A stretch of DNA of 64,000 nt from Escherichia coli (GTDB lineage Bacteria > Pseudomonadota > Gammaproteobacteria > Enterobacterales > Enterobacteriaceae), in the NCBI RefSeq assembly GCF_024223415.1, contig NZ_CP100500.1; one strand, given 5' to 3'. The notes under the pieces were generated by a model. That model made no database searches and had not been told where the DNA came from. It saw only the letters and a program-made list of their open reading frames with translations. Position 1 is the first letter of the stretch; each line of letters opens with the position of its first letter. Position numbers and translations under genes: made by a program. Below, in pieces: positions 20,995 to 34,679 of this stretch.

Positions 20995-22230
20995 ATGATT
21001 ACACATTTTCGTCAAGCCATAGAAGAAGCGCTGCCCTGGCTTTCCTCATTTGGCGCTGACCCAACGGGTGGGATGACCCGTTTACTTTATTCGCCGGAAT
21101 GGCTGGAAACCCAGCAGCAATTTAAAAAAAGAATGGCCGCAAGTGGGCTGGAAACACGTTTCGATGAAGTGGGGAATTTATACGGTCGCCTGAGTGGCAC
21201 CGAATATCCACAGGAAGTGGTTCTGAGCGGTTCGCATATCGATACCGTGGTTAACGGCGGTAACCTCGACGGGCAATTCGGCGCGCTGGCGGCGTGGCTG
21301 GCAATTGACTGGCTGAAAACTCAATACGGCGCACCGCTGCGTACGGTTGAAGTGGTGGCGATGGCGGAAGAAGAAGGCAGCCGCTTCCCGTATGTTTTCT
21401 GGGGCAGTAAAAATATCTTTGGGCTGGCGAATCCTGACGACGTGCGGAATATCTGTGATGCCAAAGGAAATAGTTTTGTCGATGCGATGAAGGCTTGCGG
21501 ATTTACTCTGCCGGACGCCCCGCTAACTCCGCGTCAGGATATTAAAGCCTTTGTCGAACTGCATATCGAACAGGGCTGTGTGCTGGAAAGTAATGGGCAA
21601 TCAATTGGCGTGGTGAATGCAATTGTCGGGCAACGTCGCTATACGGTGACGCTGAACGGCGAATCAAACCATGCAGGCACCACGCCGATGGATTATCGTC
21701 GTGATACGGTTTACGCTTTCAGTCGCATTTGCCATCAGTCGATCGAAAAAGCGAAAAAGATGGGCGACCCGCTGGTGCTGACCTTTGGTAAGGTGGAGCC
21801 GCGCCCGAATACGGTGAATGTGGTGCCGGGTAAAACCACGTTCACCATTGATTGTCGTCATACCGACGCCGCCGTGCTGCGTGATTTCACCCAACAGTTA
21901 GAAAACGACATGCGGGCGATTTGCGATGAAATGGACATTGGTATTGATATCGATTTATGGATGGACGAAGAACCCGTGCCGATGAATAAGGACCTGGTCG
22001 CCACCCTGACAGAATTGTGTGAAAGTGAAAAACTGAATTACCGGGTGATGCACAGTGGTGCCGGGCACGACGCGCAAATTTTCGCGCCTCGCGTGCCGAC
22101 CTGCATGATTTTCATTCCCAGCATCAATGGGATCAGCCATAACCCGGCGGAACGCACCAATATTACCGACCTTGCCGAAGGGGTCAAAACGTTGGCACTC
22201 ATGCTTTATCAACTTGCCTGGCAGAAATAA
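20995..22230 (+). CDS. allC: allantoate amidohydrolase
   Basis: 411 aa from MITHFRQAIEE, M20 peptidase family. Confidence 0.95.
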   Translation: MITHFRQAIEEALPWLSSFGADPTGGMTRLLYSPEWLETQQQFKKRMAASGLETRFDEVGNLYGRLSGTEYPQEVVLSGSHIDTVVNGGNLDGQFGALAAWLAIDWLKTQYGAPLRTVEVVAMAEEEGSRFPYVFWGSKNIFGLANPDDVRNICDAKGNSFVDAMKACGFTLPDAPLTPRQDIKAFVELHIEQGCVLESNGQSIGVVNAIVGQRRYTVTLNGESNHAGTTPMDYRRDTVYAFSRICHQSIEKAKKMGDPLVLTFGKVEPRPNTVNVVPGKTTFTIDCRHTDAAVLRDFTQQLENDMRAICDEMDIGIDIDLWMDEEPVPMNKDLVATLTELCESEKLNYRVMHSGAGHDAQIFAPRVPTCMIFIPSINGISHNPAERTNITDLAEGVKTLALMLYQLAWQK

Positions 22231-22237
22231 GGAGTCA

Positions 22238-22249
22238 TAAATGGGATAT
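22238..22249 (+). repeat. left copy of the attachment core/target duplication TAAATGGGATAT
   Basis: Matches 33891-33902 (TAAAAGGGATAT) at 11 of 12 positions. GGGATAT is identical in both. Confidence 0.8.
22241..22249 (+). other. allE: orphaned first three codons of allE (ATG GGA TAT), cut off from the gene body by the satellite insertion
   Basis: The SD GGAG and ATGGGATAT follow the allC stop exactly as in the uninterrupted arrangement. Reading continues into island DNA and stops after 12 codons. Confidence 0.8.
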
Positions 22250-22322
22250 ATCTATAACTTATTTTCAATAAGGTATTGATTTAATTAAACAACTTACACT
22301 ACAAAAAGTGCCAAAAATCGCA

Positions 22323-22348
22323 AATTAACTACACCATTAACTACACCG
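22323..22348 (+). repeat. 26-bp island-internal direct repeat AATTAACTACACCATTAACTACACCG (itself a tandem ATTAACTACACC x2), left copy
   Basis: Identical copy at 33743-33768. Imperfect similarity extends about 50 bp further. Confidence 0.85.
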
Positions 22349-22645
22349 TTCGGCGCACTGTATGAAACAACGTGGAACAAATAGGCACAAGAAATATAAA
22401 GGCGGGTAATTTTAAGGGGGCGTTGCTGTCGATACGGGGATCCACATATCGAGATTGATACCTGGCTTTTTTTCCGGTTAACCTTTAATCAGGCTGGTGG
22501 GCTTTACCTGTTCTGTAGGAGTGGTCATTATGACCATTCAGCCAATGACCTTAATCAGAATTTTTCGCTAAAAAATGACGTTGGCCACGTCATCCGGAAA
22601 GCACAAAATCACGTCGATTTTTAATGGATGGTTAAACCGTCTTTT

Positions 22646-22681
22646 TGTCACGGTGTGTCACTGGTTGTCACGCTCTGTCAC
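22646..22681 (+). repeat. four TGTCAC motifs spaced exactly 10 bp apart
   Basis: TGTCAC starts at 22646, 22656, 22666 and 22676, so the copies are phased by one helical turn. Confidence 0.8.
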
Positions 22682-22693
22682 GATGTCCGGCCT

Positions 22694-23044
22694 CCTCACA
22701 TTGAGGATTGTGGAAGAATCAATGGGTTAGTCTTACTACCCAAACTACGGGTAGTTTCCGTAGTTTCATGGTCGAGTTGCAGATCTGCAACTCCCCCATC
22801 AACCACAGGCGAATTTCCGCCTTCGGTCATTCCTTAATCATCTGCGTAATCATAATGATTATTCAGCCACCTCAATTTTGAGGTTTGCTTTAAGTTCAGC
22901 GAGTTACCGCGCCGACTTCCTCAAATTGAGGTTTCCGAAAATATCAGTGGGTTAGCGATTAAGCTGACCATTAATTAAACTGCGAAAATTTCGTAGTTTG
23001 TGACTGTCTTTCAGGCAGCTTGTTATCAGTCCTCAGATGTGAGG
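22694..23044. promoter_or_regulatory. four dispersed palindromes CCTCA-N3/4-TGAGG
   Basis: Located at 22694-22706, 22870-22883, 22919-22931 and 23031-23044. A perfect 20-bp palindrome GAGTTGCAGATCTGCAACTC lies at 22774-22793. Confidence 0.7.
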
Positions 23045-23087
23045 GATGTAGCCAGCGCAATTTTGCGTTATCGGGAATATCAGCAAG

Positions 23088-23369
23088 TTACCGCCGTAAC
23101 CGTTCCGGCTTCTTCCACTGATAAGTGTTTTTCGCGCTCTCCTGATACATCGCCACGCGTCGACGGTATGCCAGCAACTCTAGTACTCTGATTCGTATGT
23201 CGCGCATATCCACGCCGTTAAGCTCAATACCATCACGGCGCATTACATCAGCAACAACACGCACGTAATTTTCGGCGATCACGCTGTCCGGCTGCGTGGC
23301 CTGTTCGTCATGCTGCTGGCTGATTCCGGTAACGCGGCGGATTAATCCCAGTAGTTCGGCTTCTGTCAT
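23088..23369 (-). CDS. hypothetical 93-aa satellite protein
   Basis: ATG preceded by GGGGGC. No family recognised. Lies just beyond the left cos copy. Confidence 0.55.
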   Translation of the reverse strand: MTEAELLGLIRRVTGISQQHDEQATQPDSVIAENYVRVVADVMRRDGIELNGVDMRDIRIRVLELLAYRRRVAMYQESAKNTYQWKKPERLRR

Positions 23370-23402
23370 TGTGCCCCCATCGCTCTGATAGTCTGGTGTC
23401 GT

Positions 23403-23466
23403 CGGGTCCTTCTGGAATTATGGCCCGTTACGGGGCGTCGACCTCGCGGTTTTTCGCTATTTATGA
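23403..23466 (+). repeat. lambda-type cosQ-cosN sequence, left copy (12-mer GGGCGTCGACCT at 23433-23444)
   Basis: CGGGTCCTT..GTTACGGGGCGTCGACCTCGCGGTTTTTCGCTATTTATGA matches the lambda cos junction ..GGGTCCTTTCCGG..GTTACG/GGGCGGCGACCT/CGCGGGTTTTCGCTATTTATGA (from memory). Confidence 0.8.
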
Positions 23467-23480
23467 GCTTTTTTAGAGGG

Positions 23481-23631
23481 AGGTTGTTGTTTAATTGTTT
23501 GTCATATCCATTTGATAACTAAGTAAAAATAAAGAGCAATACAACAACCTGATAGTGTTTTTTTGATGCTAAAAATAAAAAAATACTAATTGAATCAAAT
23601 AGTTTTAAAAAAATACGTGGTTGTTGTATTG
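23481..23631 (+). promoter_or_regulatory. cosB-like region: three GGTTGTTGT(A/T)TT sites in + - + orientation separated by A-tract DNA
   Basis: Sites at 23481-23497 (+), 23537-23550 (-) and 23618-23631 (+). Their order and orientation mirror lambda R3-R2-R1. Confidence 0.6.
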
Positions 23632-23661
23632 CGTATTTGATGGCGTAACAGAAAGTGATTT

Positions 23662-24102
23662 TTAACTTTGCTGTTCTGTAACGACTGATTGTTCCATGCT
23701 GGCACGGCGAACGCTTACGGCATGACGCCACCCAGCCAGAAAGCCAGCCATTTTATTTCGTGCCTTGCTCACATCTTCCGGTGAATAGCCGTAAATATGC
23801 AAACCTTCATCAAATCGCTGTTCTGTTTCTTCACTGAAATACTCGTCGCGCTCTGACGCAATCAACCTGGCAACCATAATCTTTTCCAGTGCGCTGGTTT
23901 CTCCGTGGTACTCAATAGCATCAAGATGGCTTTTACCCATGCACCAGAATAATGTGTGTCCGATGTGATAACCGCCGGACTTTCCGCGATCCGCATCAAG
24001 ATATGGCATGCCCTGTTTGGTCCATGCGCGAATAGTGGTTCTGTTGACCTTGAAATGTTCTGCTATTTCCTGCTGACTCACAAAACAAGCTTTATCAATC
24101 AT
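23662..24102 (-). CDS. Nu1-like winged-HTH protein (small-terminase N-domain homologue; candidate packaging-redirection protein)
   Basis: VSQQEIAEHFKVNRTTIRAWTKQGMPYL aligns with lambda Nu1 VNKKQLADIFGASIRTIQNWQEQGMPVL. The C-terminal half is unrelated to Nu1. Confidence 0.7.
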   Translation of the reverse strand: MIDKACFVSQQEIAEHFKVNRTTIRAWTKQGMPYLDADRGKSGGYHIGHTLFWCMGKSHLDAIEYHGETSALEKIMVARLIASERDEYFSEETEQRFDEGLHIYGYSPEDVSKARNKMAGFLAGWRHAVSVRRASMEQSVVTEQQS

Positions 24103-24169
24103 AATGTTACCTTAATCATGCGATTAAATGTTAATCAAGTGGTGGTGGTGTCACCTTCACGGAAAAACG

Positions 24170-24234
24170 TCATAAATAGCGAAAACGCGCGAGGTCGACG
24201 CCCCGTAACGGGTCCACATGCCGGAAAGGACCCG
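24170..24234 (-). repeat. lambda-type cosQ-cosN sequence, right copy, inverted (12-mer at 24192-24203)
   Basis: The reverse complement CGGGTCCTTTCCGGCATGTGGACCCGTTACGGGGCGTCGACCTCGCGCGTTTTCGCTATTTATGA matches the left copy and lambda cos. Confidence 0.8.
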
Positions 24235-24235
24235 C

Positions 24236-24258
24236 AAAAAAAGCCGGATTTCTCCGGC
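24236..24258 (-). terminator. intrinsic terminator after orf137
   Basis: On the minus strand, the GCCGGAGAAATCCGGC hairpin is followed by a U7 run, 7 nt after the stop codon. Confidence 0.8.
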
Positions 24259-24264
24259 CTTGTC

Positions 24265-24678
24265 TCAGATGGTTTTCAGTATGCGATCGATGTCGCCGTC
24301 ATCGCCCTGGTTTGTGCCATCGTATGCCATGCCAGCTGATACGGCTTTCGGGCTGTGCATGTCCATAAAGTTTTCAAAGGCTGAAGTAAGCTCTGGTGCA
24401 ACCTTCGGGCGTTCCTGCTCTATGGTCATGCTAAGGATGCTTTTAGCCGTACCAACATCGATACAAGGCACGTTAGCCATTGCACGTAACAGCGGCTGGT
24501 AGTCGTCAGATTCATGAAGCGCCATAATCGCATCAGCGCGCGGCTTGTCCTGTTCTTCCAGTTTGTTGAGTCGGTGTATGGCCTCGTAGGTTGATAAACC
24601 TCTGTCAGCCATTGCCCGCGCTTCGGCTTTAAATTTACTCGCCAGCGGTAGCTTCATGATACTTTCATTCGTTGCCAT
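24265..24678 (-). CDS. hypothetical 137-aa head-module protein
   Basis: Strong SD AGGGGGAA. Tightly packed after the decoration gene. No family recognised. Confidence 0.6.
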   Translation of the reverse strand: MATNESIMKLPLASKFKAEARAMADRGLSTYEAIHRLNKLEEQDKPRADAIMALHESDDYQPLLRAMANVPCIDVGTAKSILSMTIEQERPKVAPELTSAFENFMDMHSPKAVSAGMAYDGTNQGDDGDIDRILKTI

Positions 24679-24690
24679 CGTTCCCCCTGC

Positions 24691-25026
24691 TTATCGTGCC
24701 AGCGGCTGAACGGATACGCCGGAACCCGCAAAGGCGGCGCATTTTTTCGCATCGGTGTCGACGCTATCAGGCCAGTTAACGGCGGCAATATTGAATATCC
24801 CCGTTTTGTAACACTGTGCTGATTTCTGCTTTGACGTGTCCACGGGGTGCGAAGTCAGATAAACAGCTTTGCCAGATTCCTGACCATCCCACGCCTTAAA
24901 CTCGCCATTGTCTGCCAGCATCAGCGGGGTAAATTCCTGAATAACGCCAGCATCAGCGGCAAAATGTACCAGCGTCGTGGATACCTGCTGGCTGCCTGAA
25001 AATAACTCAATGTATGGAGCGTCCAT
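24691..25026 (-). CDS. head decoration protein, lambda gpD-like
   Basis: 111 aa. TPLMLADNGEFKAWDG and KKCAAFAGSGVSV align with gpD TPLMLDTSSRKLVAWDG and KKRTAFAGTAISIV. Confidence 0.8.
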   Translation of the reverse strand: MDAPYIELFSGSQQVSTTLVHFAADAGVIQEFTPLMLADNGEFKAWDGQESGKAVYLTSHPVDTSKQKSAQCYKTGIFNIAAVNWPDSVDTDAKKCAAFAGSGVSVQPLAR

Positions 25027-25037
25027 AGAATCCCCCG

Positions 25038-26093
25038 TTAAGCAATTTTGACGGTAACAAATTTGCGAATATCTGCCGGTACCGGCTGCGGTGCGCTGTG
25101 CGTCTGCACGTACTCAATCGCCGGATCGCCGTCCTCAATCCAGTTTTTCGGGTAGTACATGTTTTGCGTTGCGCCCGTTCTTACCGCTTCCTGATCCATA
25201 ATCGCACCATATGCCACCAGCCCTTTATTGTTGGTGTTACCCAGGACCAGCAAATCAGGCTCAAGGAAATATTTTTCGGTGCCGTCGCTGTCAGTGTATT
25301 TGCCGGAATAGACGATAAGGGCCAGATCACCAAGATAGCCTTTAAAGCTCACCACTTCGCCCAGGTTTTTACAGGCCAGCTCGGCGGCGGATTCTGACCC
25401 ACGGGAAAGATCGTACAGTTCACGGAATTTTTTAAAGCTGCGTAATGTGCGCCATACCTCACCGCCCATAATCATGACGTTGGCGGGGCAACCTGCCTGA
25501 TCAGCATAAAGCTCGATGTCATAGATTGGGTCGTGCATGTCTTTATCCTGCTGGGACCATTTTTTACCACTGGCCTGCTGTATGATGCAGTTTTCCGGTA
25601 TTTTCCAGTCGATTTCATAGCGTTCTATGCCTTCGCCCTCAATGATGTTTTTTCCGGTCGTTACCGCATTCACCGCCAGCCATTCAACACGCGCTTTAAT
25701 GGCGTTTACCTGGCGGCGCATGTTGCCAGTAATCAGGCGCATACGGCGATAGGTTGGGTCGTTAAGCTGTGCCGGATCTTCTCCAGCCATGCGCATGATG
25801 GTCTTTGTTGGATCGATTTCGTGCTTTGGCTTCATGTAGCCTGGTTTAATCGTGCTGGTTTCGTACCCTTTATCGCGCTGGACCTGACTACCCACCATAG
25901 GAGAACAGAACGCAGACATCGTAACCTCTTCAATGTCCAGGGTGTCCAGCATGATGTTTTGGGTGTTGAAGGTCGCCACGTTCGGGAAAAACAGCGTGGT
26001 AAACAGCGGACTAAATTTAAATTCCGAAATATCCCCGCGATTCAGGTACGCGAAAAGCTGGTTAGTTGTAAGTGCCGTTGCTTTGCCTGTCAT
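25038..26093 (-). CDS. major capsid protein, lambda gpE family
   Basis: 351 aa. KFSPLF, PGYMKPKHE, YPKNW and HSAP align with gpE KFDPLF, PGYVKPKHE, YPKNW and QSAP. SD GGAGGTG, with a TAATG overlap with the upstream ORF. Confidence 0.9.
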   Translation of the reverse strand: MTGKATALTTNQLFAYLNRGDISEFKFSPLFTTLFFPNVATFNTQNIMLDTLDIEEVTMSAFCSPMVGSQVQRDKGYETSTIKPGYMKPKHEIDPTKTIMRMAGEDPAQLNDPTYRRMRLITGNMRRQVNAIKARVEWLAVNAVTTGKNIIEGEGIERYEIDWKIPENCIIQQASGKKWSQQDKDMHDPIYDIELYADQAGCPANVMIMGGEVWRTLRSFKKFRELYDLSRGSESAAELACKNLGEVVSFKGYLGDLALIVYSGKYTDSDGTEKYFLEPDLLVLGNTNNKGLVAYGAIMDQEAVRTGATQNMYYPKNWIEDGDPAIEYVQTHSAPQPVPADIRKFVTVKIA

Positions 26094-26299
26094 TATTCAC
26101 CTCCGTGAACCTGATTGATACCCAGCGCCGCACGTAAATAGGTGCGCACCTGCCAGCCTGTTGACGGCTCAACCATCGCCAGCGGATCAAGTCCTGCCGC
26201 AATGCCTGCTTTTACATTCTGCTGGTGGCGTTCCTTGAGCGCCTCCACGATGTCGGGGCTTATGTAGACCGTCACCCCGCCTTTTTTCTCTTCTGCCAT
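26093..26299 (-). CDS. hypothetical 68-aa protein, first gene of the capsid operon
   Basis: Translationally coupled to the capsid gene. No family recognised. Confidence 0.55.
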   Translation of the reverse strand: MAEEKKGGVTVYISPDIVEALKERHQQNVKAGIAAGLDPLAMVEPSTGWQVRTYLRAALGINQVHGGE

Positions 26300-26332
26300 A
26301 GTCAGAAATTCCTCTTTGACTTAAAAAATCAT

Positions 26333-26383
26333 AACTGGATGTTCATCCAGTCCTGATTATAATCATGATTGCATTTTGTGCAA
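26333..26383 (-). promoter_or_regulatory. sigma70 promoter of the capsid operon (TTGCAC-16-TATAAT) with an overlapping LexA-like palindrome
   Basis: On the minus strand, the -35 is at 26378-26383 and the -10 at 26356-26361. AACTGGATGTTCATCCAGTC (26333-26352) has CTG-N10-CAG and starts 5 nt after the -10. Confidence 0.6.
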
Positions 26384-26466
26384 TAATGTTGAGTTGTGTT
26401 GCAAATTATGAAATGATTATCCCGATCATGTGTGTCAGTGCACCATAAAAAACCTCGTATACAAAA

Positions 26467-26504
26467 GCCCGATAAGCCCCCTGTGACCTTATCGGGCTTT
26501 TTTT
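26467..26504. terminator. hairpin GCCCGATAAG..CTTATCGGGC with T7 on the plus strand and UUUUGU on the minus strand (bidirectional)
   Basis: 10-bp stem flanked by A/T runs. Confidence 0.7.
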
Positions 26505-26510
26505 AGGCGT

Positions 26511-26532
26511 AAAAAAGCCGGATTGCTCCGGC
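26511..26532 (-). terminator. intrinsic terminator after the PerC-like gene
   Basis: On the minus strand, the GCCGGAGCAATCCGGC hairpin is followed by U6. Near-identical to the terminator at 24236-24258. Confidence 0.8.
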
Positions 26533-26539
26533 TGTGTGC

Positions 26540-26812
26540 TCACTTCTGCGGGTAGTTGCGCCATATTGCTTTGCCAATACCAGCTATCCCCATTTGTTTT
26601 TCAGTGCGATTAACTGACCTTTTCAGAGCGCCTAAATCATCCGGCGGCTCCGGTGGCCTCTGTGCCTTCCGTGAACATTCCAGCCGTCGCATTGCCACCT
26701 GTGCGCGTTCCTTGTCTGTCTCCACCAGCATCATCACTTCACCCCATCGCGCGGCCGCCCTCCGGTAAAATCCTTTCGCCTCCAGTTCCTCCGCTATCCG
26801 GTCATGTACCAT
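26540..26812 (-). CDS. PerC/Pch-family transcriptional activator-like protein
   Basis: 90 aa from MVHDRIAEELEAKGFYRRAAARWGEVM, with SD GAGGGGG. The motif resembles PerC-family A..LE..GLWRRAA.RW (from memory). Confidence 0.55.
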   Translation of the reverse strand: MVHDRIAEELEAKGFYRRAAARWGEVMMLVETDKERAQVAMRRLECSRKAQRPPEPPDDLGALKRSVNRTEKQMGIAGIGKAIWRNYPQK

Positions 26813-26822
26813 CGTCACCCCC

Positions 26823-27233
26823 TCAGAACGGAATATCATCACCGTAAGGGTCATCGCCTCCCGCTGGTGGCTGATTACCCTGTGTGCCTGTGGTTTTGCG
26901 TCTGTTCCCGCCAGGACGTGCCGCACGGGCACTGATTACGCTGTCTGCGATGACCTGCCAGCCCTGCCGCGTTTCGCCGTTCTGGCCTGTCCACTGGCTT
27001 ACCTGCATGTTACCCGCCACGCTCACCAGTTCGCCTTTGTGGTGTCTGGCCAGTGCGTCGGCCTGTCTGCCAAACGCCAGGACGGATAACCACATCGTCG
27101 CCGTTCCGTCATCTGCCTGGCTGCATGGCAGGGGAACCGCCATACTCGCCATCGCCATTTGTGTCCCTTTGCTGGTCTGTTTTGTCTGCGGGTCGTCCAC
27201 CAGCCGCCCGTAAGCCGCTATCTGTGCTGTCAT
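26823..27233 (-). CDS. ssb: single-stranded DNA-binding protein
   Basis: 136 aa with an OB-fold-like N-terminus, a Gly/Pro-rich linker and the canonical acidic tip DDIPF. Confidence 0.85.
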   Translation of the reverse strand: MTAQIAAYGRLVDDPQTKQTSKGTQMAMASMAVPLPCSQADDGTATMWLSVLAFGRQADALARHHKGELVSVAGNMQVSQWTGQNGETRQGWQVIADSVISARAARPGGNRRKTTGTQGNQPPAGGDDPYGDDIPF

Positions 27234-27487
27234 GCTGTCTGCTCTCCGGTTTTAACATTGATGGTTGTCACCTGTTCCGCTCCGGCAATCTCCCGCTCTG
27301 TCAGCGTGGCAAAGTTTGCCGCCGTCGTTGTCATGAATGCGCTTATCAGTTCGGGATGTGCTTTCGCGTATCCTTCCCCCGTGTTGCGGTCGATGATTTT
27401 TATCGCCACCCTCAGCCAGTGCTCTGTAAGGTCAATGGCGCGGTTATGTGATTTCTTCTGATTGTTAAATTTTTCTGATGTGTGCAT
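27230..27487 (-). CDS. hypothetical 85-aa protein
   Basis: ATGA overlap with the ssb start. No family recognised. Confidence 0.5.
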   Translation of the reverse strand: MHTSEKFNNQKKSHNRAIDLTEHWLRVAIKIIDRNTGEGYAKAHPELISAFMTTTAANFATLTEREIAGAEQVTTINVKTGEQTA

Positions 27488-27534
27488 TTTTATTTTTACC
27501 CCCTCGTTTAAAAAGTTTTGAGTTGTGGTGCACC

Positions 27535-27760
27535 TCCTCTACCTCTCTACACAATCATCTTTCAGGTCAGTAATGGCGCGGCTTTCAGCGGGGTAGAGGG
27601 CTTTTTTGGCCCTCTACCCGCCATCTACCACCCCCTCACAAATGCCCTGAATTATGGTAGAGGGTGTAGAGGGCTTTTAAGTACCTTCTACCTGCCATCC
27701 ACCCAATCTATCCACATGAAATATATGTAATTATTTTCTTAAGGTAGAAGGGGTAGAGGG
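27535..27760. repeat. iteron array, at least 10 copies of (G/T)GTAGA(G/A)GG in both orientations; candidate satellite replication origin
   Basis: Includes GGGTAGAGGGC-ttttttg-GCCCTCTACCC (27590-27618), GGTAGAGGGTGTAGAGGGC (27655-27673) and GGTAGAAGGGGTAGAGGGC (27742-27760). Lies directly downstream of the primase-helicase gene. Confidence 0.7.
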
Positions 27761-27773
27761 CTTTTGTCTAAAA

Positions 27774-29522
27774 CTATAAAAACGCGTCGCAGTCGTCTGT
27801 TGTTGTCACGTTGGTTTGCGTAAACCCTTTAATCCTGCGCGTTATATATTCATGACCGTAAACTTTCGCCGCTGGCTTCATGGCCTTGCTGAACTCAGCC
27901 ACGTTCAGCGGTTTGCTCCTGCCTGCATACGCCATAAACGCCAGATAGACGCGGTAAAGGCTGTTTCTGGTCGTGTACTTCACTGAATCGCCACCGCCGC
28001 CCATCATCAGGCCACGTGCTTCCTCCAGAAAATTCAGGAACTGGCAAAACTCAATAACCGGATCCGTCTGTTGCTTTATTGCCAGAGCTTCATCACCGTC
28101 TCGCTGTTCAATGAGTAAAGCCCGTGCCTTTTCAGGGTCGGCAAAGTTCGCCAGCAAGCGGCGGATAATGACAGGGATTTCAGCCGCGATCTTTTCCGGT
28201 AGCTCCCTGTCTTTTTCTGCCTCGCTTACGATGTTATCGAACCGGAATATCACCCGACGACGTGACACGCCTCCTGCCCGTTCGGTGAATATCATCGGGT
28301 TATTATTGGTTGCCAGCACAACCGCCCTGATTACCGCCGTGAATCGCTTTTCATATTTCGGGTTGATTTCCACGGGGTCGCCGCCCGTGATTTTCTTGAT
28401 GCCCGTTCCTTCGCCTGTATATTTCGGCTGGTCTGCCAGGACAATAAGCCTACTCCCGACAACCTGCGCACGCCCACCAGCATCATCAAGCGATGTCATC
28501 TCAGCGCTTACCGTGTTCTGTTTCCCTGCCAGAAGGCTGGCTATGTGTGTGAATGTACTTTTACCGCTCCCGCCGTCTCCGGTGGCCTCAATAAACATCT
28601 GCCAGTCGTACCGGTTCGCCATAATCATGTACAGCGCGGCACATATACGCATCATCTTGCGCGGGTCTTTTCCGGCAGCGTGATCAAGCCATTTATGAAA
28701 GTTTGGCGCGTTGTCGCGGATATTCTCACCTGGTACTGGCGGCGTGTACTCAATGCCGTTGTGTGTGGTGATCCAGTTCTCCGGCGTGTGCGGGGAAAAT
28801 TCCCCCGTTTTCAGGTCAAGCGCACCATTGGCGAACGGCAGCAAATCGCCGGACGGCTCGCCCATTGGTTCGGCAATAACTTTTAACGCTTCCACGGCGT
28901 TACTGATTACGCGCTTGCTGAAAGTGGCCCTGTGCTCTGAATAGATCGCCACCATTTCGCGGCTCAGTTCCATTGTGCTGACCGGACACCATACCCCGCC
29001 GCGCCATACGTGAACGATTTCACTTTCCAGATGCACACAAACGCCATCAAATCGACCAGCAAGCATCTGTGCGCGCTCACTGTCTGCCATTTGTGCCAGT
29101 TGCGTATTTTTCTGCTCCGGCATGGTAAGCCCTGCGGCAATATTTTCACGCTCAGCATTCAGATAGCGCCGCCAGTTTTCACACTTCTGACCGTGCATTC
29201 CTTCAGAGTAAAAATTCGCATCCTGAATATCTGCCGCCGCCAGCTTCTGACCAATCTTTTTGGTCTCCACTAAATCCAGTTCTCCGGCCTGGTACAGCCT
29301 TACGCGTTTTTTTCCATCCGGAACAATTTTCAGCGCATCAAGTTCAGCAAGCTGATTTGGCCCAAGCCACACAGGCGGCACATTATCGCCGGATGCGGGA
29401 CCGTCCTTCTCCTGCCACTGTTGTGCATGCGACCAGGCATCACTACCCGCAAAGATAATTACCTCTGTGTCTTTGTGTTTTATTCCGCGTGGCTGTTTTT
29501 TTACGTTCGGTGCCAGTTTCAT
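27774..29522 (-). CDS. P4-alpha-type primase/SF3 helicase (replication initiator)
   Basis: 582 aa with Walker A GDGGSGKST and a D5_N/P4-family C-terminal layout. Confidence 0.85.
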   Translation of the reverse strand: MKLAPNVKKQPRGIKHKDTEVIIFAGSDAWSHAQQWQEKDGPASGDNVPPVWLGPNQLAELDALKIVPDGKKRVRLYQAGELDLVETKKIGQKLAAADIQDANFYSEGMHGQKCENWRRYLNAERENIAAGLTMPEQKNTQLAQMADSERAQMLAGRFDGVCVHLESEIVHVWRGGVWCPVSTMELSREMVAIYSEHRATFSKRVISNAVEALKVIAEPMGEPSGDLLPFANGALDLKTGEFSPHTPENWITTHNGIEYTPPVPGENIRDNAPNFHKWLDHAAGKDPRKMMRICAALYMIMANRYDWQMFIEATGDGGSGKSTFTHIASLLAGKQNTVSAEMTSLDDAGGRAQVVGSRLIVLADQPKYTGEGTGIKKITGGDPVEINPKYEKRFTAVIRAVVLATNNNPMIFTERAGGVSRRRVIFRFDNIVSEAEKDRELPEKIAAEIPVIIRRLLANFADPEKARALLIEQRDGDEALAIKQQTDPVIEFCQFLNFLEEARGLMMGGGGDSVKYTTRNSLYRVYLAFMAYAGRSKPLNVAEFSKAMKPAAKVYGHEYITRRIKGFTQTNVTTTDDCDAFL

Positions 29523-29818
29523 TTTTTACCCCTGAATACGTTAAGCATCTTTTTTATTTCCTGAATATTGGCGCGTGCTTTCTCCCTGCTGGTTGGTTTA
29601 CTGCGGGGCGCTGCCTGTACCAGAGAAAAATCACGCCGGAACTGATAAACAGGCATCACGCAATCATATTCGTAGCCTTCACGGCGGTAAGTGATGCGCC
29701 GTTCCTCCACGCCTTTAATCGTTACCGTGCCGCCGTACTGGTCGCGGTAAATATCGCCGTTCATAAATTCAGGCCGAGCGGGGCCGCTGGCATTAACGCC
29801 AGTATTTTTCATTCCCAT
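29519..29818 (-). CDS. hypothetical 99-aa protein
   Basis: ATGA overlap with the primase start. Basic C-terminus. Confidence 0.55.
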   Translation of the reverse strand: MGMKNTGVNASGPARPEFMNGDIYRDQYGGTVTIKGVEERRITYRREGYEYDCVMPVYQFRRDFSLVQAAPRSKPTSREKARANIQEIKKMLNVFRGKK

Positions 29819-29822
29819 ATAA

Positions 29823-30065
29823 TTAAATTCCGTTTGTGTGGTGTTTTAATTCGTCAATTTTTTCTAATGCTTTGTTTATCTTGCTGGTGGAAATATCCAG
29901 CAATTCAGAAATAGCAAATATAAGTCTTGCCGTTGATTCATCTCTTTCGTTGTTTGACAGCAATTGAAACCACACGTTTGTAATTTCAATTGCCGAATTA
30001 TTATAGGTTATTGCACTGTTCATGTATTCCGACACCTCTGCAAGCGAAAGTTTATTATTCTCCAT
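29823..30065 (-). CDS. hypothetical 80-aa protein (AT-rich)
   Basis: Predicted helical, with markedly lower GC than its neighbours. Confidence 0.5.
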   Translation of the reverse strand: MENNKLSLAEVSEYMNSAITYNNSAIEITNVWFQLLSNNERDESTARLIFAISELLDISTSKINKALEKIDELKHHTNGI

Positions 30066-30246
30066 AACGTTCTACCCTCTCATCAATTAACCACAGTGCA
30101 ACACTTCCTGACAGTCTTGCCAGAAGGCCAGCTAATGCGGATATATCATCATCATTTAATTTATTAGGGTACGCTTCAAGAAGTCTGCAAATAATTTCGG
30201 TTTGGTGGGCGCGTTCAGCGGCTTCGTGTAATGTAATTTCCTTCAT
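30055..30246 (-). CDS. hypothetical 63-aa protein (AT-rich)
   Basis: Overlaps the next ORF by 11 nt. Confidence 0.5.
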   Translation of the reverse strand: MKEITLHEAAERAHQTEIICRLLEAYPNKLNDDDISALAGLLARLSGSVALWLIDERVERYGE

Positions 30247-30431
30247 TAATGCACCTCTTTTAATTCATACACTGCTGAAATAATGACTTGTGATAAGCCA
30301 TATTCTGATGATTCGCTTCTCACCGCAGCAATAGCCGTCTGAACATTAACAGCCTTCACATTCTGAGCGATACCAATTGTGTGGCCTAGTGGGTTAACAG
30401 CTCGGGCAAATACACGGAAGGTTTTAAGCAT
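30246..30431 (-). CDS. hypothetical 61-aa protein
   Basis: Its start overlaps the upstream stop, and its own stop overlaps the next start by 1 nt. Confidence 0.5.
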   Translation of the reverse strand: MLKTFRVFARAVNPLGHTIGIAQNVKAVNVQTAIAAVRSESSEYGLSQVIISAVYELKEVH

Positions 30432-30789
30432 GGCGCACCCCCTGAATAACCTGATATCCGCAACTGGTCAGCAATTCGATAAATTCCGGCAGAGTGCCAA
30501 AACAGCAATCAGTGCGTAGCTGTTCGCAGGATACCTCAACGCCGTTTTCGTAATGGCTCACTATGCGCCCGGTAAAATGCGGATCATCATCGTGATGGCA
30601 CGTTGACGGTTTCATCAGCCGCGCGCGTTCCGCCAGTTCCAGCAATGCTTCAACGCTTCCGGCAATTGCACCATCCGGCAGGTGATAATTACTTACTACG
30701 CGTCCATTCTCTACATTGACCAGTAGCTGTCCGGTAAATTTCTCACGAAACTGAACGCGGTTAAGATCGGTAAGTGACAGGTTAATCAT
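30424..30789 (-). CDS. hypothetical 121-aa protein
   Basis: Start MINLSLTDLNR, chosen because ATGATTAA overlaps the upstream stop codon. Confidence 0.55.
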   Translation of the reverse strand: MINLSLTDLNRVQFREKFTGQLLVNVENGRVVSNYHLPDGAIAGSVEALLELAERARLMKPSTCHHDDDPHFTGRIVSHYENGVEVSCEQLRTDCCFGTLPEFIELLTSCGYQVIQGVRHA

Positions 30790-30979
30790 GGCACACCTCC
30801 TGACGAATACGGGCGGCGAATACAGCGACACAACCGGACGGGCAACGGTTACGCGCTTCGCGTTCTGTCCAGGCGGTCACGTGGATAATTTGAGATTCTC
30901 CGGCACTCAGTGCCAGAAAACGCCACACAAAGGCGGTTTGTGTGTGCGCAAGGCGTGGGGTATGCTGTGTTCCAGCCAT
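30782..30979 (-). CDS. small Icd-like (P4-family cell-division-inhibitor-like) protein
   Basis: 65 aa MAGTQHTPRLAHTQTAFVWRFLALS...TEREARNRC...FAARIRQE, with SD GAGGT. The family call is from memory of P4-like prophage annotations. Confidence 0.4.
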   Translation of the reverse strand: MAGTQHTPRLAHTQTAFVWRFLALSAGESQIIHVTAWTEREARNRCPSGCVAVFAARIRQEVCHD

Positions 30980-31070
30980 AATCGTTACCTCAATTAATGG
31001 TTTGGTTAGAAGCCCGTTGGTGTTCATAGCGCCAGCGGGCTTTGTCTTTTCATCGATTACCTCAATAAAG

Positions 31071-31151
31071 GTGTCAGCCACTATACTAGTAACAGGTGTC
31101 AGCCACGTCAATAGTGTTTTTCCATTTTCTTGTGTGTATACTGTCAGCCAC
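31071..31151. promoter_or_regulatory. divergent control region with three (G/C)TGTCAGCCAC repeats interleaved with TATACT -10-like hexamers
   Basis: Copies at 31071-31081, 31096-31106 and 31141-31151. TATACT at 31082-31087 and 31137-31142. Confidence 0.65.
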
Positions 31152-31172
31152 CTAATAACAAGGAAATCAGAT

Positions 31173-31352
31173 ATGGCAACGAAAGCAGTTAATGGAAAAT
31201 CCAAAAAACTTGAGGCACGAGTCCCCCATGCAATAGCTGACGCTTTAGAAAATTTAAAGGAAGAAGGCGAAAGCACTGGGCAATTTATCGTTTCGGCACT
31301 TGAAGGCGAGATCAAACGCCGCCAGCGCCGGAAGGCCAAAGAATCAGAATAA
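31173..31352 (+). CDS. ribbon-helix-helix (Arc/MetJ/CopG-like) DNA-binding protein, candidate satellite repressor
   Basis: 59 aa. KKLEARVPHAIADALENLKEEGESTGQFIVSALEGEIKRRQ fits a beta-strand/helix/helix pattern. Divergent from the early operon. Confidence 0.6.
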   Translation: MATKAVNGKSKKLEARVPHAIADALENLKEEGESTGQFIVSALEGEIKRRQRRKAKESE

Positions 31353-31409
31353 TCACTATCAGCGCCGTGGTGTGAGGTACTGCGGCGCATTGTTTTAAAG
31401 GTGATAATT

Positions 31410-31601
31410 ATGAATAACCAAGAACTACAAAATAAAGCATTATCAATTATCATGCGCCAGCGTGAGAAAACCCGCAGGGAAATAAATAAGGCATTAACCC
31501 GCACTGAAAATCTTAAAGTTCCTGATAAGTTCGCCCTTGATCCTTTTGTCGAGAAATACCCTCGGCGCTTAAAAGCAAACAAAAACCGCCCACCTGGCTG
31601 A
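31410..31601 (+). CDS. hypothetical 63-aa basic protein
   Basis: ATG with SD AAGGTG. Followed by an intrinsic terminator. Confidence 0.5.
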   Translation: MNNQELQNKALSIIMRQREKTRREINKALTRTENLKVPDKFALDPFVEKYPRRLKANKNRPPG

Positions 31602-31635
31602 CAATCCACCAGCAAGCCAGGACACTGATCACATT

Positions 31636-31663
31636 GGCCACCGTGACAGGTGGCCTTTTCTTT
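31636..31663 (+). terminator. intrinsic terminator of the rhh operon
   Basis: GGCCACC-gtgaca-GGTGGCC followed by TTTTCTTT. Confidence 0.8.
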
Positions 31664-31716
31664 GCCCGTTATCCGGCAATTGTGGCGCTTCGCCACACGG
31701 TTGATATAATCCCACT

Positions 31717-31787
31717 GCTCATATTCATTTTTTGCGCAGTAGGTTAATTGTTCAGAAAGGCGGCTCCTTATCGGGGCCGCTTTTTTT
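31717..31787 (+). ncRNA. candidate ~70-nt small RNA, antisense to the alpA-early operon transcript
   Basis: An extended -10 TGATATAAT (31702-31710) lies upstream of an 8-bp-stem hairpin plus T7 (31760-31787). There is no credible plus-strand CDS between them. Confidence 0.35.
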
Positions 31788-31928
31788 ATGTCTGAAAAAC
31801 CGCGATTTTGTTGTTTTTCAGTTTCACAAGGCCGAACGAAGCCCCGCCCCTGTTCGGGCGTATATCCAGTCTTCATGGTTAAATCTCTGTATTAGTGGAT
31901 GGGTGGCGGCTGTGTGCCGCCAGTCTTT

Positions 31929-32117
31929 TTAGTGAACTGCCTCGCAGCTTTCCTTCCATGCCAGAACTTCGGATAAAGACCAGCCAACGGAACGACCGCC
32001 CAGCTTACGCCGTGATGGGAATTGTCCGGCCTTTTCCAGGCGGTAGCGGCATGAGCGGCTAAGCCCTGTTAGCTTTTCGCATTCTTTTTCACGTATAAAC
32101 CGATCAGTGCTTAACAC
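31929..32117 (-). CDS. alpA: AlpA-family HTH regulator/excisionase-like protein
   Basis: 62 aa, GTG start with SD AAAGGGGG. The LTGLSRSCRYRLEKAGQFPSRRKLGGRSVGWSLSEVLAW motif is typical of AlpA. Confidence 0.85.
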   Translation of the reverse strand: MLSTDRFIREKECEKLTGLSRSCRYRLEKAGQFPSRRKLGGRSVGWSLSEVLAWKESCEAVH

Positions 32118-32409
32118 TATTGCCCCCTTTCGTTTCTTAAAGAGTTATTTCGTGTTCTATTGCGTTGGTATGTGTCTGATTGTGTCAGGGTGATTCAGAG
32201 TTGGCAAATGTTGGTGGCGGGTATTTTACAGAAACGGGGTTATTTTAATAAAAAACATTTTAATTCAGTATTATGCAAAGGCATAAAATCTCGTTTTATG
32301 CCTTTTTTCTCACTATTTAAAGCGTTATTCGCTAATGTATAAAAAACCAGTTGAGCATTAAAAATCAGCAACTTATAAATCTGTATACTTTTTGGCCTCT
32401 TGTTCGTGG

Positions 32410-32443
32410 TTGTTTCACGTTGTTGCGTATTGTTTCACGTTGT
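32410..32443 (+). repeat. two direct copies of TTGTTTCACGTTGT, 20 bp apart
   Basis: The same 13-mer family occurs inverted near both island ends (22364-22379 and 33787-33800). Confidence 0.75.
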
Positions 32444-32491
32444 ATCTGTGCACTTATCCAGTATGCGCATACTGAAAAAACACGAAAAAAA

Positions 32492-33742
32492 TTATTTTCT
32501 TCTGGTTACTGGTAGCGTGGTTACGTTTTCATGTGCTCCCGCCAGTATCTCCAACCGCTCCACCCACATATCCAGCGCATTGCGTTTCGCATCCAGATAA
32601 CGGGAATGATTATAAACTCGCTGCATTCCTGGCATCTGGTGGCCTGTAAGCTGCTCCACGACGTGAGGATCCACGCCTAAATCGTTCAGCATCGTTGTAA
32701 AGGTGCGCCGGATGTCATGCAGTGACCAGTGAGGGTGTTTAAGCCTCCTGTGCGCTAATCTTCCATACTGCGATACGCTGGCCTCCTGTTTCACTTCCCC
32801 CAGCAATAAGCCCGTGTGCCTGTTCTGCTCCACCAGCTGCGTGACGAACGGCAGTATCGCTTCCGGTATGGGCCGGAATATGGCTACCTTCGTTTTGCTG
32901 TGCTCCTTCGGAACGGTCCATAGCATTTCGGTAAAATCCCACTCCCCGATCTCCGATAGCCTCAGTTCTACTGTCCTGGCTCCGAAGACAATCAGGAGGC
33001 GGATTAGTGCGACGTAGTAAGGGGAAAATATTTTTTTGTCCAGTGCCTGCAATAATTCGCCAAGTTCTTTGTTACTTAAGACACGCTGACTTATATCCGG
33101 TTTTTTCCCAACGTCAGCAACACTCATATCATCAAGAACGTTGCTGATTGCATAGCGCCGCTTCCGGCAGAACTTAAGCGCCTGTTTGCATGTCTGTAGC
33201 AGGAATCCGGCGGAAACAGGGGCTTGCTTTGCCACCCGATCAAAACAGGCCAGCCAGTGCCGTAGCTCGCATTTATCCAGCGGCATAGCACCAATCTGCT
33301 GTATTACGTGATTATTAAGTCGCCTTTTCAGGGCGATATAATCCACGCGGTTTTCCTTTACGTAATACTCAAGCCAGTAGGTAAGCGCATCGCCAACCGT
33401 TACAGGCTTTAACGCTTCCTGTACGGTGTAATTCATCTCATGACGTGGATTTTTCCCCTCAGCCAGCCATGCGCGGCACTGTGCGGCTTTTTCCCTGGCT
33501 GCTTTCAGGCTCAGATCAGGATAATTTCCCAGCTTAATCCGTTCCGGTCGTGCTCCCCTTCCCGTTCCGGCCCTGTAGGTGAAATACCAGGTTAAAAGGC
33601 CGCTGGTTGAATGCCTGACGGTCAGGTTTCCACCGTCATTAAGAAAGACTGTTTTTTGGGCGGGTGTGCCGTTGATTTTCCTTAGCTGTGTATCGCTCAG
33701 TTTGTTAAGTGCTCTGCGCATAATTTTGATTCCGGTCATCAC
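32492..33742 (-). CDS. int: P4-family tyrosine integrase
   Basis: About 410 aa with catalytic HDIRRT...GH...Y motifs. Adjacent to the right attachment site. The start is ambiguous (GTG 33742, ATG 33739 or the ATG of MRRALNKL). Confidence 0.9.
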   Translation of the reverse strand: MMTGIKIMRRALNKLSDTQLRKINGTPAQKTVFLNDGGNLTVRHSTSGLLTWYFTYRAGTGRGARPERIKLGNYPDLSLKAAREKAAQCRAWLAEGKNPRHEMNYTVQEALKPVTVGDALTYWLEYYVKENRVDYIALKRRLNNHVIQQIGAMPLDKCELRHWLACFDRVAKQAPVSAGFLLQTCKQALKFCRKRRYAISNVLDDMSVADVGKKPDISQRVLSNKELGELLQALDKKIFSPYYVALIRLLIVFGARTVELRLSEIGEWDFTEMLWTVPKEHSKTKVAIFRPIPEAILPFVTQLVEQNRHTGLLLGEVKQEASVSQYGRLAHRRLKHPHWSLHDIRRTFTTMLNDLGVDPHVVEQLTGHQMPGMQRVYNHSRYLDAKRNALDMWVERLEILAGAHENVTTLPVTRRK

Positions 33743-33768
33743 AATTAACTACACCATTAACTACACCG
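33743..33768 (+). repeat. right copy of the 26-bp repeat, immediately upstream of the integrase start
   Basis: Identical to 22323-22348. Candidate integrase arm-type or RDF binding site. Confidence 0.85.
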
Positions 33769-33890
33769 ATCGTTGCACAAAGGGCTACAACGTGAAACAA
33801 GCTGGAACAAGAAAAATCACAAATTTGTTTATAATCAAAAACATAATGCACAACCTGAAACATTATGAAACGGCAAAAAACACTAATTGA

Positions 33891-33902
33891 TAAAAGGGAT
33901 AT
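33891..33902 (+). repeat. right copy of the attachment core TAAAAGGGATAT
   Basis: See the left copy. The allE reading frame resumes inside this repeat. Confidence 0.8.
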
Positions 33903-34679
33903 TTAAATAACGTCACCGGTTACCGCGATGATTTACTGGCTAACCGTGCGATTGTGAAACACGGTAATTTCGCACTGTTAACACCAGACGGTCTGGTAAA
34001 AAATATTATTCCGGGCTTTGAAAATTGTGACGCGACAATCCTCTCCACGCCAAAGCTGGGTGCCTCTTTTGTTGATTATCTGGTCACACTGCATCAAAAC
34101 GGTGGCAACCAACAGGGCTTCGGTGGCGAAGGCATTGAAACGTTCCTGTATGTGATCTCTGGAAATATCACTGCCAAAGCCGAAGGCAAAACATTTGCCT
34201 TAAGCGAAGGTGGCTATCTTTATTGCCCGCCAGGCTCCTTAATGACGTTTGTTAACGCCCAGGCCGAAGACAGCCAAATCTTTTTATATAAGCGCCGCTA
34301 TGTTCCGGTAGAAGGCCATGCACCGTGGCTGGTTTCTGGCAATGCCAGCGAACTGGAACGCATTCACTATGAAGGTATGGATGATGTGATCCTGCTGGAT
34401 TTTCTGCCCAAAGAGTTAGGTTTTGATATGAACATGCATATCCTCTCTTTTGCACCAGGTGCCAGCCATGGTTATATCGAAACACACGTTCAGGAACACG
34501 GTGCCTATATTCTTTCCGGTCAGGGGGTTTATAACCTCGACAATAACTGGATCCCGGTGAAAAAAGGCGATTACATCTTTATGGGCGCTTATTCTTTACA
34601 GGCTGGTTATGGCGTAGGGCGTGGTGAAGCGTTCAGCTATATTTACTCGAAAGATTGCAACCGCGACGTAGAGATTTAA
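33897..34679 (+). pseudogene. allE: (S)-ureidoglycine aminohydrolase body lacking its start codon (codons 2-261)
   Basis: GYLNNVTGYRDDLLANRAIVKHGNF... continues to the native stop. ATG is replaced by AAG and preceded by an in-frame TAA. The first possible internal start is GTG 33954. Confidence 0.8.

Follow-up and report, generated by a model that had tools for sequence, protein, structure and literature searches.

Small proteins that are encoded upstream of a primase or antirepressor gene and co-transcribed with it are typical of the P4 left operon (kil, eps, orf151, alpha) and the P1 icd-ant operon, and among these early proteins are one that kills the cell or blocks its division and one that is directed at the helper. 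Here, we analyze a chain of six small open reading frames (ORFs), beginning with an Icd-like gene and ending at a primase gene, in an 11.4-kb island of Escherichia coli (contig NZ_CP100500.1 of assembly GCF_024223415.1); the whole stretch analyzed, 64,000 nucleotides long, is referred to as the window. It has been reported that in EcCICFT073, the prototype Gram-negative phage-inducible chromosomal island (PICI) from strain CFT073, AlpA acts as a transcriptional activator of the ORF that lies downstream of alpA, helper phages induce alpA, and deletion of pri-rep alone abolishes replication (Fillol-Salom et al. 2018, PMC6092414). RgdR, which is ECs1581 of O-island 51 (OI-51) in enterohemorrhagic E. 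coli (EHEC) O157:H7, is a published regulator that activates LEE1 in the enterocyte-effacement locus (LEE), represses motility, raises Congo-red binding and binds DNA weakly, and an N at residue 20 lowered its activation of type III secretion (Flockhart et al. 2012, PMC3378721). In strain ECOR61, the phage accessory gene orf24 triggers cell death through what has been called a 'prophage-encoded superinfection exclusion/PCD system' (PCD, programmed cell death); Tn5 insertions that suppressed it hit three genes, of 192 nt, 186 nt and 366 nt (the last one Icd-like), which overlap by 1 and 8 nt and belong to a six-gene unit with a primase gene at its end, reconstitution needed six linked genes including the primase, and removal of the Icd-like gene abolished the effect (Silas et al., bioRxiv 10.1101/2023.04.06.535777). 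Phage-gene-triggered death was also reported there for ECOR15, with a P4-type island carrying AlpA, Icd-like and primase genes.

Compared with these systems, the six ORFs of the window are real, translationally chained genes, and we consider it rather probable that they form the promoter-proximal, coupled part of a PICI operon dependent on AlpA and a helper phage, acting through the arrest mechanism proposed below. The gene structure, the coupling, the purifying selection, the module architecture and the mosaicism were established on the window and its relatives, while the dependence on AlpA and a helper, the phenotypes of RgdR and the requirement for three genes in ECOR61 come from homologues or probable homologues; by analogy, we infer the same behavior for the window copy, as well as the role of each protein.

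All six ORFs, of 65, 121, 61, 63, 80 and 99 aa, are present where a first-pass annotation, made from the letters of the DNA, had placed them (29519–30979; Table 1). They are more than chance reading frames because every one of them matches a PHROG family (E 1e-26 to 1e-46) and is under purifying selection; among homologous islands, the median pairwise dN/dS is 0.27 for the Icd-like gene, 0.21 for the 121-aa gene, 0.21 for the 61-aa gene, 0.18 for the 63-aa gene, 0.19 for the 80-aa gene and 0.34 for the 99-aa gene, and the values span 0.13–0.35 across the six. Poor conservation or missing coding signatures, which that annotation had named as grounds for discarding the ORFs, are thus the opposite of what was found. 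The Icd-like/121-aa and 121-aa/61-aa junctions are 8-nt overlaps (ATGATTAA and ATGCTTAA, respectively), the 61-aa/63-aa junction is a 1-nt overlap (TAATG), the 63-aa and 80-aa genes overlap by 11 nt, the 80-aa and 99-aa genes are separated by a 4-nt gap without overlap, and the 99-aa gene overlaps the primase gene by 4 nt (ATGA). The ATGA/TAATG-type chaining proposed earlier for the small ORFs therefore holds for the 61-aa/63-aa junction but not for the others, with their overlaps of 8, 8 and 11 nt and one 4-nt gap. A clear purine-rich Shine–Dalgarno sequence precedes five of the six small-ORF starts and is weak only for the 99-aa gene; at the Icd-like start, which is internal to a mechanically called ORF of 364 aa, it is GAGGT, 8 nt upstream. 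Together, the overlaps and Shine–Dalgarno sites agree with the earlier claim of co-translation and describe a single early operon, coupled in translation, that lies upstream of the replicase. On the opposite strand, three plus-strand ORFs within the region had no PHROG match and are taken to be shadow ORFs. A plus-strand ORF of 69 aa (30788–30997), antisense to the Icd-like gene, was rejected as a gene despite a match to phrog_4106 (E 5e-37); it is read as a shadow ORF because stop codons break it in 7 of the 27 loci compared below, the Icd-like frame being intact in all 27, and phrog_4106 was probably itself built from mis-called shadow ORFs.

Table 1. Positions of the chained genes and of associated island features in the window.
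Feature	Position	Strand	Remarks
Icd-like protein, 65 aa	30782–30979	minus	First operon gene; fixed 5' end of the module
121-aa protein	30424–30789	minus	Two predicted tandem copies of domain X; polymorphic cassette
61-aa protein, family C	30246–30431	minus	phrog_3672
63-aa protein, family D	30055–30246	minus	phrog_1478
80-aa AT-rich protein, family E, NERD-type motif	29823–30065	minus	phrog_5796
RgdR orthologue by sequence (DUF4222), 99 aa	29519–29818	minus	PF13973; fixed 3' end of the module
Primase/replicase, 582 aa, D5_N + DUF5906	27774–29522	minus	Pfam, TIGR01613, phrog_864; downstream partner of the chain
Iteron cluster, presumed origin	27536–27765		GGGTAGAGGGC and GGGTAGAGGGC(TTTT), both orientations; directly downstream of the primase stop
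Divergent promoter/operator region	31069–31151		Between the operon and divergent ylcI/ynfO; three TGTCAGCCAC direct repeats
alpA	31929–32117		PF05930, 65 bits
int	32492–33742		
Perfect 26-bp direct repeat, copy 1	22323–22348		AATTAACTACACCATTAACTACACCG
Perfect 26-bp direct repeat, copy 2	33743–33768		AATTAACTACACCATTAACTACACCG

The organization of the chain was compared over 27 loci, made up of the window, 15 loci of complete E. coli genomes, one locus each of Shigella and E. albertii, and 10 loci retrieved through the exact 61-aa protein; EcCICFT073 itself is locus L006, and a CP-933C-type island is L001. The Icd-like gene at the 5' end and the DUF4222 gene at the 3' end are found in all 27 loci, and between these fixed ends lie one to five small genes from families C (61 aa), D (63–76 aa), E (73–86 aa, with a NERD-type motif), F, G and X. 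An E-family member stands directly before DUF4222 in 24 of the 27, and two interior sets recur, C-D-E and (D)-F-(X2)-G-E; natural fusions F+G and X2+G were also found. A related module from the Icd-like gene to DUF4222 was matched in 1587 of 5426 complete E. coli genomes (~29%), and other assemblies also contain the complete six-gene chain, which is there joined to either a RepA-helicase or a D5-primase replicase and occupies three integration sites. On this comparison, the interior is an exchangeable set of unrelated small-protein cassettes, and the Shine–Dalgarno-ATG-stop linkers are predicted to double as recombination joints. The window itself is a mosaic. The closest match of its Icd-121 block is L005 (strain Ch1), whereas L004 and L019 are those of its 61-63-80 block, and the breakpoint falls exactly at the 121/61 junction, which has in common with the Icd/121 junction a linker of ~20 nt, CAGG[A/G]GGTG[T/C]GCCATG[A/C]TTAA. 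The nearest relative, L019, occupies the same chromosomal site (glxK-ylbA) and has the 61-63-80 triad without the 121-aa gene; identity to the window is 100% for the 61-aa protein, 94% for the 63-aa protein, 100% for the 80-aa protein, 98% for RgdR and 98% for the primase. The window is an L019-like backbone carrying a block of ylcI, the Icd-like gene and the 121-aa gene that resembles L005. The breakpoint at the 121/61 linker and the absence of the 121-aa gene from L019 identify this gene as the polymorphic unit of this lineage, shuffled at the coupling linkers.

The island that carries the chain is bounded by a perfect direct repeat and inserted between allC and allE/ylbA, and the minus strand carries all of its chain, primase, single-stranded DNA-binding protein (SSB) and capsid genes. 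It contains an integrase, AlpA, a divergent YlcI/YnfO-family gene, the six-gene chain, a D5_N/DUF5906 primase, iterons, SSB, a lambda-E-type capsid gene, a small terS-like helix-turn-helix protein and PHROG unknowns, while no tail or lysis genes were seen among the island ORFs. The features by which PICIs are recognized are present: int and alpA at one end, mostly unidirectional genes, a size in the range of ~10–15 kb, flanking attachment-site direct repeats, a lack of tail and lysis genes, and a pri/rep gene followed by an iteron-type origin. The iteron cluster is presumed to be the island's origin because its position fits the rule that ori comes after pri in PICIs, as given in PMC10111431. 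By architecture, the element is a PICI of the EcCICFT073 family, for which helper-driven induction, replication and high-frequency transfer have been shown in EcCICFT073 alone; the satellite assignment of the first-pass annotation is upheld, but its P4-like label gives way to a PICI of the EcCICFT073 type. EcCICFT073 has the same order of int, alpA, divergent ylcI/ynfO and the Icd-like gene, and continues alike with a small-gene cassette, DUF4222, a D5-type primase, a small ORF, SSB, PerC and a lambda-E-type capsid with a decoration protein. Identity to the window is 89% for the primase, 73% for DUF4222, 54% for the 63-aa family and 50% for the Icd-like protein, which is of the other allelic type. 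The interior is D-F-G-E77 in EcCICFT073 and X2(121)-C(61)-D(63)-E80 in the window, and EcCICFT073 is integrated at roxA-pepT, whereas the window island is at allC/allE. Related integrases (91–94% identical) occupy tqsA or roxA-pepT sites in other strains. In addition, many Icd-61-63-73-DUF4222-primase modules (L018, L020–L026) are in islands lying within the lambda-type major capsid gene of a prophage, which divides Phage_cap_E into two pieces, of 91 aa and 346 aa; these islands correspond to the 'helper-embedded PICIs' of PMC10111431.

The upstream end of the operon is a divergent promoter/operator region, whose TGTCAGCCAC repeats are spaced 25 and 45 nt apart and overlap a sigma-70-like promoter, TTGACG-17-TAGTAT (31111..31083, minus). 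Among the 27 loci, the TGTCAGCCAC motif occurs elsewhere only in L007 (5316–5395), whose YlcI is 95% identical; the pattern suggests that the repeats and YlcI are a candidate cognate operator–regulator pair. Between the promoter-like site and the start codon of the Icd-like gene, the 5' leader contains a hairpin with a 16-bp stem (31009–31043), which on the plus strand is terminator-like, with a T-run. The 364-aa ORF (30782–31876, minus) lies antisense to ylcI and extends from just past alpA as far as the Icd-like gene, which it enters; its N-terminus (MKTGYTPEQGRGFVRP) matches that of the AntA-type genes found after alpA in other islands (P0055). This ORF is probably what is left of an antirepressor-like gene that the ylcI block displaced. 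A P1-type C4 or IsrK antisense RNA was not found by Rfam search of 22000–34000 at E<=1, which returned only a sub-threshold manA match elsewhere.

The individual proteins are informative to different degrees. The Icd-like protein, whose tentative naming in the first-pass annotation is borne out, matches NF033153 (phage_ICD_like, a 48-residue domain with a curated NCBIfam cutoff) at 64.9 bits against a cutoff of 25 over residues 17–60, and it also matches phrog_29966/1743; inhibition of cell division by this protein would follow by analogy, from the family name and the inferred effector in ECOR61. The 121-aa protein matches phrog_340 in two stretches, as well as phrog_2512. It is read as a tandem duplication of a ~50-aa domain ('domain X') because its N-terminal and C-terminal halves align with each other in hhalign (87% probability, E 4e-6); its AF2 secondary structure is twice E-E-H (β-hairpin plus helix), with a pLDDT of 49.5, too poor for a fold search, and natural variants exist with deletions between the repeats. 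Two further leads on this protein were set aside. Matches to designed armadillo proteins in the PDB were treated as spurious, since one 29-residue stretch is summed over designed repeats and no single stretch passes; and P0055, in which an AntA domain is fused to the C-half of the 121-aa protein, has little weight as evidence for an antirepressor, being a single-contig deletion that also removes the Icd-like gene. The 61-aa protein matches phrog_3672 (E 6.5e-46) and its family has just 7 cluster representatives among 1.84 billion proteins; the exact sequence was found in 1821 blocks of the assembly index, and the gene, when present, always lies directly after the Icd-like gene or after the 121-aa gene. 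The 63-aa protein is predicted to be helical, matches phrog_1478 (E 8e-33) and has a dN/dS of 0.13–0.18, and the 80-aa protein matches phrog_5796 (E 2e-26). Within the AT-rich 80-aa gene, a 15-nt inverted repeat with a 4-nt loop is found at 29960–29993 (GCAATTGAAACCACA/TGTAATTTCAATTGC). The possibility that the interior proteins are diverged paralogues was rejected, as hhalign probability was <2% for every pairing apart from that of the 121-aa protein's own halves.

The 99-aa protein, for which no family had been named at first (only the first ORF was then thought to have one), is a DUF4222 protein (PF13973, 84.8 bits against a cutoff of 27). It is 85% identical over 99 aa to a CP-933C-type protein annotated rgdR in the same operon position and is, by homology and position, the RgdR orthologue. 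The RGD motif at residues 20–22, which is important for LEE activation, reads NGD in the window; NGD, PGD and RGD are roughly equally frequent among 120 close RgdR homologues. The AF2 model (pLDDT 75.7, core ~90) is an SH3/Tudor/KOW-like barrel with a C-terminal helix, and a Foldseek search with it gave no PDB match at E<=0.001. DUF4222 directly precedes the replicase in all 27 loci, whether the replicase is a D5 primase, a DUF927 protein or a RepA helicase, and 4-nt DUF4222/replicase overlaps were seen in the window and in annotated loci. These three replicase types have just their first ~140–160 residues in common, with 42–79% identity (window 29043–29522, residues 1–160, compared with L001, L004, L005, L010 and L011), and this common N-terminus may be a docking domain. 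RNA polymerase or H-NS-silenced promoters might be the targets of RgdR, with its modeled Tudor/KOW-like barrel and basic helix; its published phenotypes are LEE up, motility down and curli up.

Several other explanations of the small genes have to be weighed against a coupled PICI operon. The first-pass annotation took the AT-richness of the 63-aa and 80-aa genes to suggest a recently acquired moron, and added that small paired proteins could form a toxin-antitoxin or abortive-infection module. The low-GC patch is real, with GC falling to 0.33–0.40 (200-nt windows) over 29800–30300 from about 0.50–0.56 on either side, and the proteins are small, adjacent and encoded with an 11-nt overlap; one sigma-70-like match (30083..30054) also lies inside the patch. 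The patch covers three genes rather than two, however, since per-gene GC is 0.53 for the Icd-like gene, 0.50 for the 121-aa gene, 0.42 for the 61-aa gene, 0.42 for the 63-aa gene, 0.34 for the 80-aa gene (the most extreme) and 0.50 for the 99-aa gene, and the low-GC block, including the 61-aa gene, is wholly embedded in the coupled chain. E-family genes have a GC of 0.32–0.40 in every island, under purifying selection (dN/dS 0.19), while C and D genes have 0.41–0.48; low GC is therefore an old property of the cassette. Of the marks of a moron, only the deviant composition was found. The 61-63-80 block has no promoter/terminator pair of its own, promoter-like matches being at chance (8 against 6.7±2.6 expected) and no terminator flanking it; the triad is already present in L019, and the block occurs in CP-933C-type and helper-embedded islands as well. 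The gene that is polymorphic with respect to L019 is instead the GC-normal 121-aa gene. Nor do the AT-rich genes show the domain, own promoter or obligate co-occurrence of a type II toxin-antitoxin system: D occurs without C (L006, L009) and E without D (L002, L005, L010), PADLOC found no defence system among the six proteins, no toxin-antitoxin signature was seen, Pfam and PDB gave no matches for the pair, and Tn5 insertions in the 186-nt and 192-nt genes of ECOR61, the probable counterparts of the 61-aa and 63-aa genes, suppress toxicity and do not cause it. A separately acquired moron, be it a toxin-antitoxin or a stand-alone abortive-infection unit, is accordingly very improbable.

A different reading holds that the 80-aa E protein and DUF4222/RgdR are replication accessory factors working on the replicase or origin, for example as loaders or regulators binding the N-terminal domain of the replicase, with the virulence phenotypes as side effects of over-expression. 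The invariant coupling of DUF4222 to the replicase is compatible with this, but the RgdR fold is ubiquitous and returned no PDB match, deletion of pri-rep alone already abolishes replication (PMC6092414), and DUF4222 has the highest dN/dS of the six (0.34) and a variable residue 20, which fits a partner-specific adaptor with any partner; on balance, we regard this explanation as unlikely, though it is the strongest of the rivals. It has also been reported that deletion of OI-51 lowers LEE expression and colonization and that ECs1581 has the effects on LEE1, motility and Congo-red binding given above (PMC3378721), and LEE is affected as well by PerC-family genes, which these islands also carry. 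The small genes could on these grounds be lysogenic-conversion regulators that tune host virulence, motility or surface properties and have no role in the satellite life cycle. Against this, the related module occurs in ~29% of complete E. coli genomes, the islands are also found in uropathogenic and commensal strains (CFT073, ED1a), the genes lie in an operon switched by AlpA and a helper and are coupled to the replicase, and the RgdR of the window lacks R20; lysogenic conversion as the whole explanation is improbable, less so than a moron.

Under the coupled PICI operon that we favor, a phage cue acting via AlpA and the YlcI-controlled divergent promoter would switch on one coupled transcript. 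The Icd-like, 61-aa and 63-aa proteins would then arrest the host cell by a block of division or growth, seen as 'programmed cell death/superinfection exclusion', after which RgdR/DUF4222 and the replicase would set off replication of the satellite as well as a reprogramming of transcription; proteins of the variable interior would serve as phage- or host-facing adaptors. A more daring extension, which we put forward as doubtful, is that the interior is a recombining adaptor array that sets which phage accessory proteins trigger Icd-dependent arrest, or which host or helper targets are addressed, with the 121-aa protein as an undescribed sensor fold. A helper-facing or abortive function for the small genes, suggested in the first-pass annotation, has a published precedent in the Icd-like, 186-nt and 192-nt genes of ECOR61, whose overlaps match. 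Several observations weigh against the arrest model. For the interior proteins, no relative was found in Pfam, PADLOC or the PDB, and no biochemical function is assigned to them. The N20 of the window RgdR is the substitution that lowered the activation of type III secretion by ECs1581. Reconstitution of the ECOR61 system in a laboratory strain was weak (bioRxiv 10.1101/2023.04.06.535777), and the insertions in its first three genes could be partly polar, yet none is listed in the much larger primase gene. The ECOR61 Icd-like protein is the long, 121-aa form, and the homology of the ECOR61 locus to the window module is inferred from gene lengths, overlaps, annotation and neighborhood, not from sequence. 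Finally, in the loci with the ECOR61 geometry described below, the Icd-like protein is only ~56% identical to that of the window and the E member is of the 73-aa type.

CP-933C/O-island 51 of EHEC O157:H7 has the same Icd-like, 61, 63, E, DUF4222 chain as the window, and identity is 98% for the 61-aa protein, 92% for the 63-aa protein, 59% for the 80-aa protein and 85% for the 99-aa protein. It differs in being without the 121-aa gene, in having a DUF927 replicase and an HK97-type capsid, protease and portal, and in an RgdR with R20 (RGD), compared with N20 (NGD) in the window. In ECOR61, the 186-nt and 192-nt genes have the same lengths and the same 1-nt overlap as the 61-aa and 63-aa genes of the window. 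Unlike ECOR61, the window has a 121-aa domain-X gene between the Icd-like and 61-aa genes and a short Icd-like form. The exact ECOR61 geometry (Icd-like 121, 61, 63 and 73 aa, DUF4222, primase) was found in four loci (L018, L020, L023 and L025), which carry the exact 61-aa protein of the window and a 63-aa protein ~76% identical to its own. With P4 and P1, relatedness is confined to AlpA/Vis, the primase and the Icd-like domain, and neither P4 nor P1 has homologues of the interior proteins.

If the adaptor-array extension is true, the module would be a compact, cassette-swappable phage-sensing system present in roughly a quarter of E. coli genomes. Its genes are annotated nearly everywhere as 'hypothetical'. 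Read as one module, they offer an inexpensive experimental handle on host arrest by PICIs, on phage sensing and on why a 'virulence regulator' is hard-wired to a satellite replicase. The locus is a particular mosaic haplotype of a kind of element that is largely charted already; RgdR has been characterized, three genes probably match a published system, and the window showed nothing without precedent. Of continuing interest are the biochemistry of the small proteins, the cassette-and-linker organization and the link between PICIs, RgdR and cell death, through which three literatures, namely PICI biology, the EHEC regulator RgdR and the death triggered by a phage accessory gene in ECOR61, may be read as describing one conserved module.

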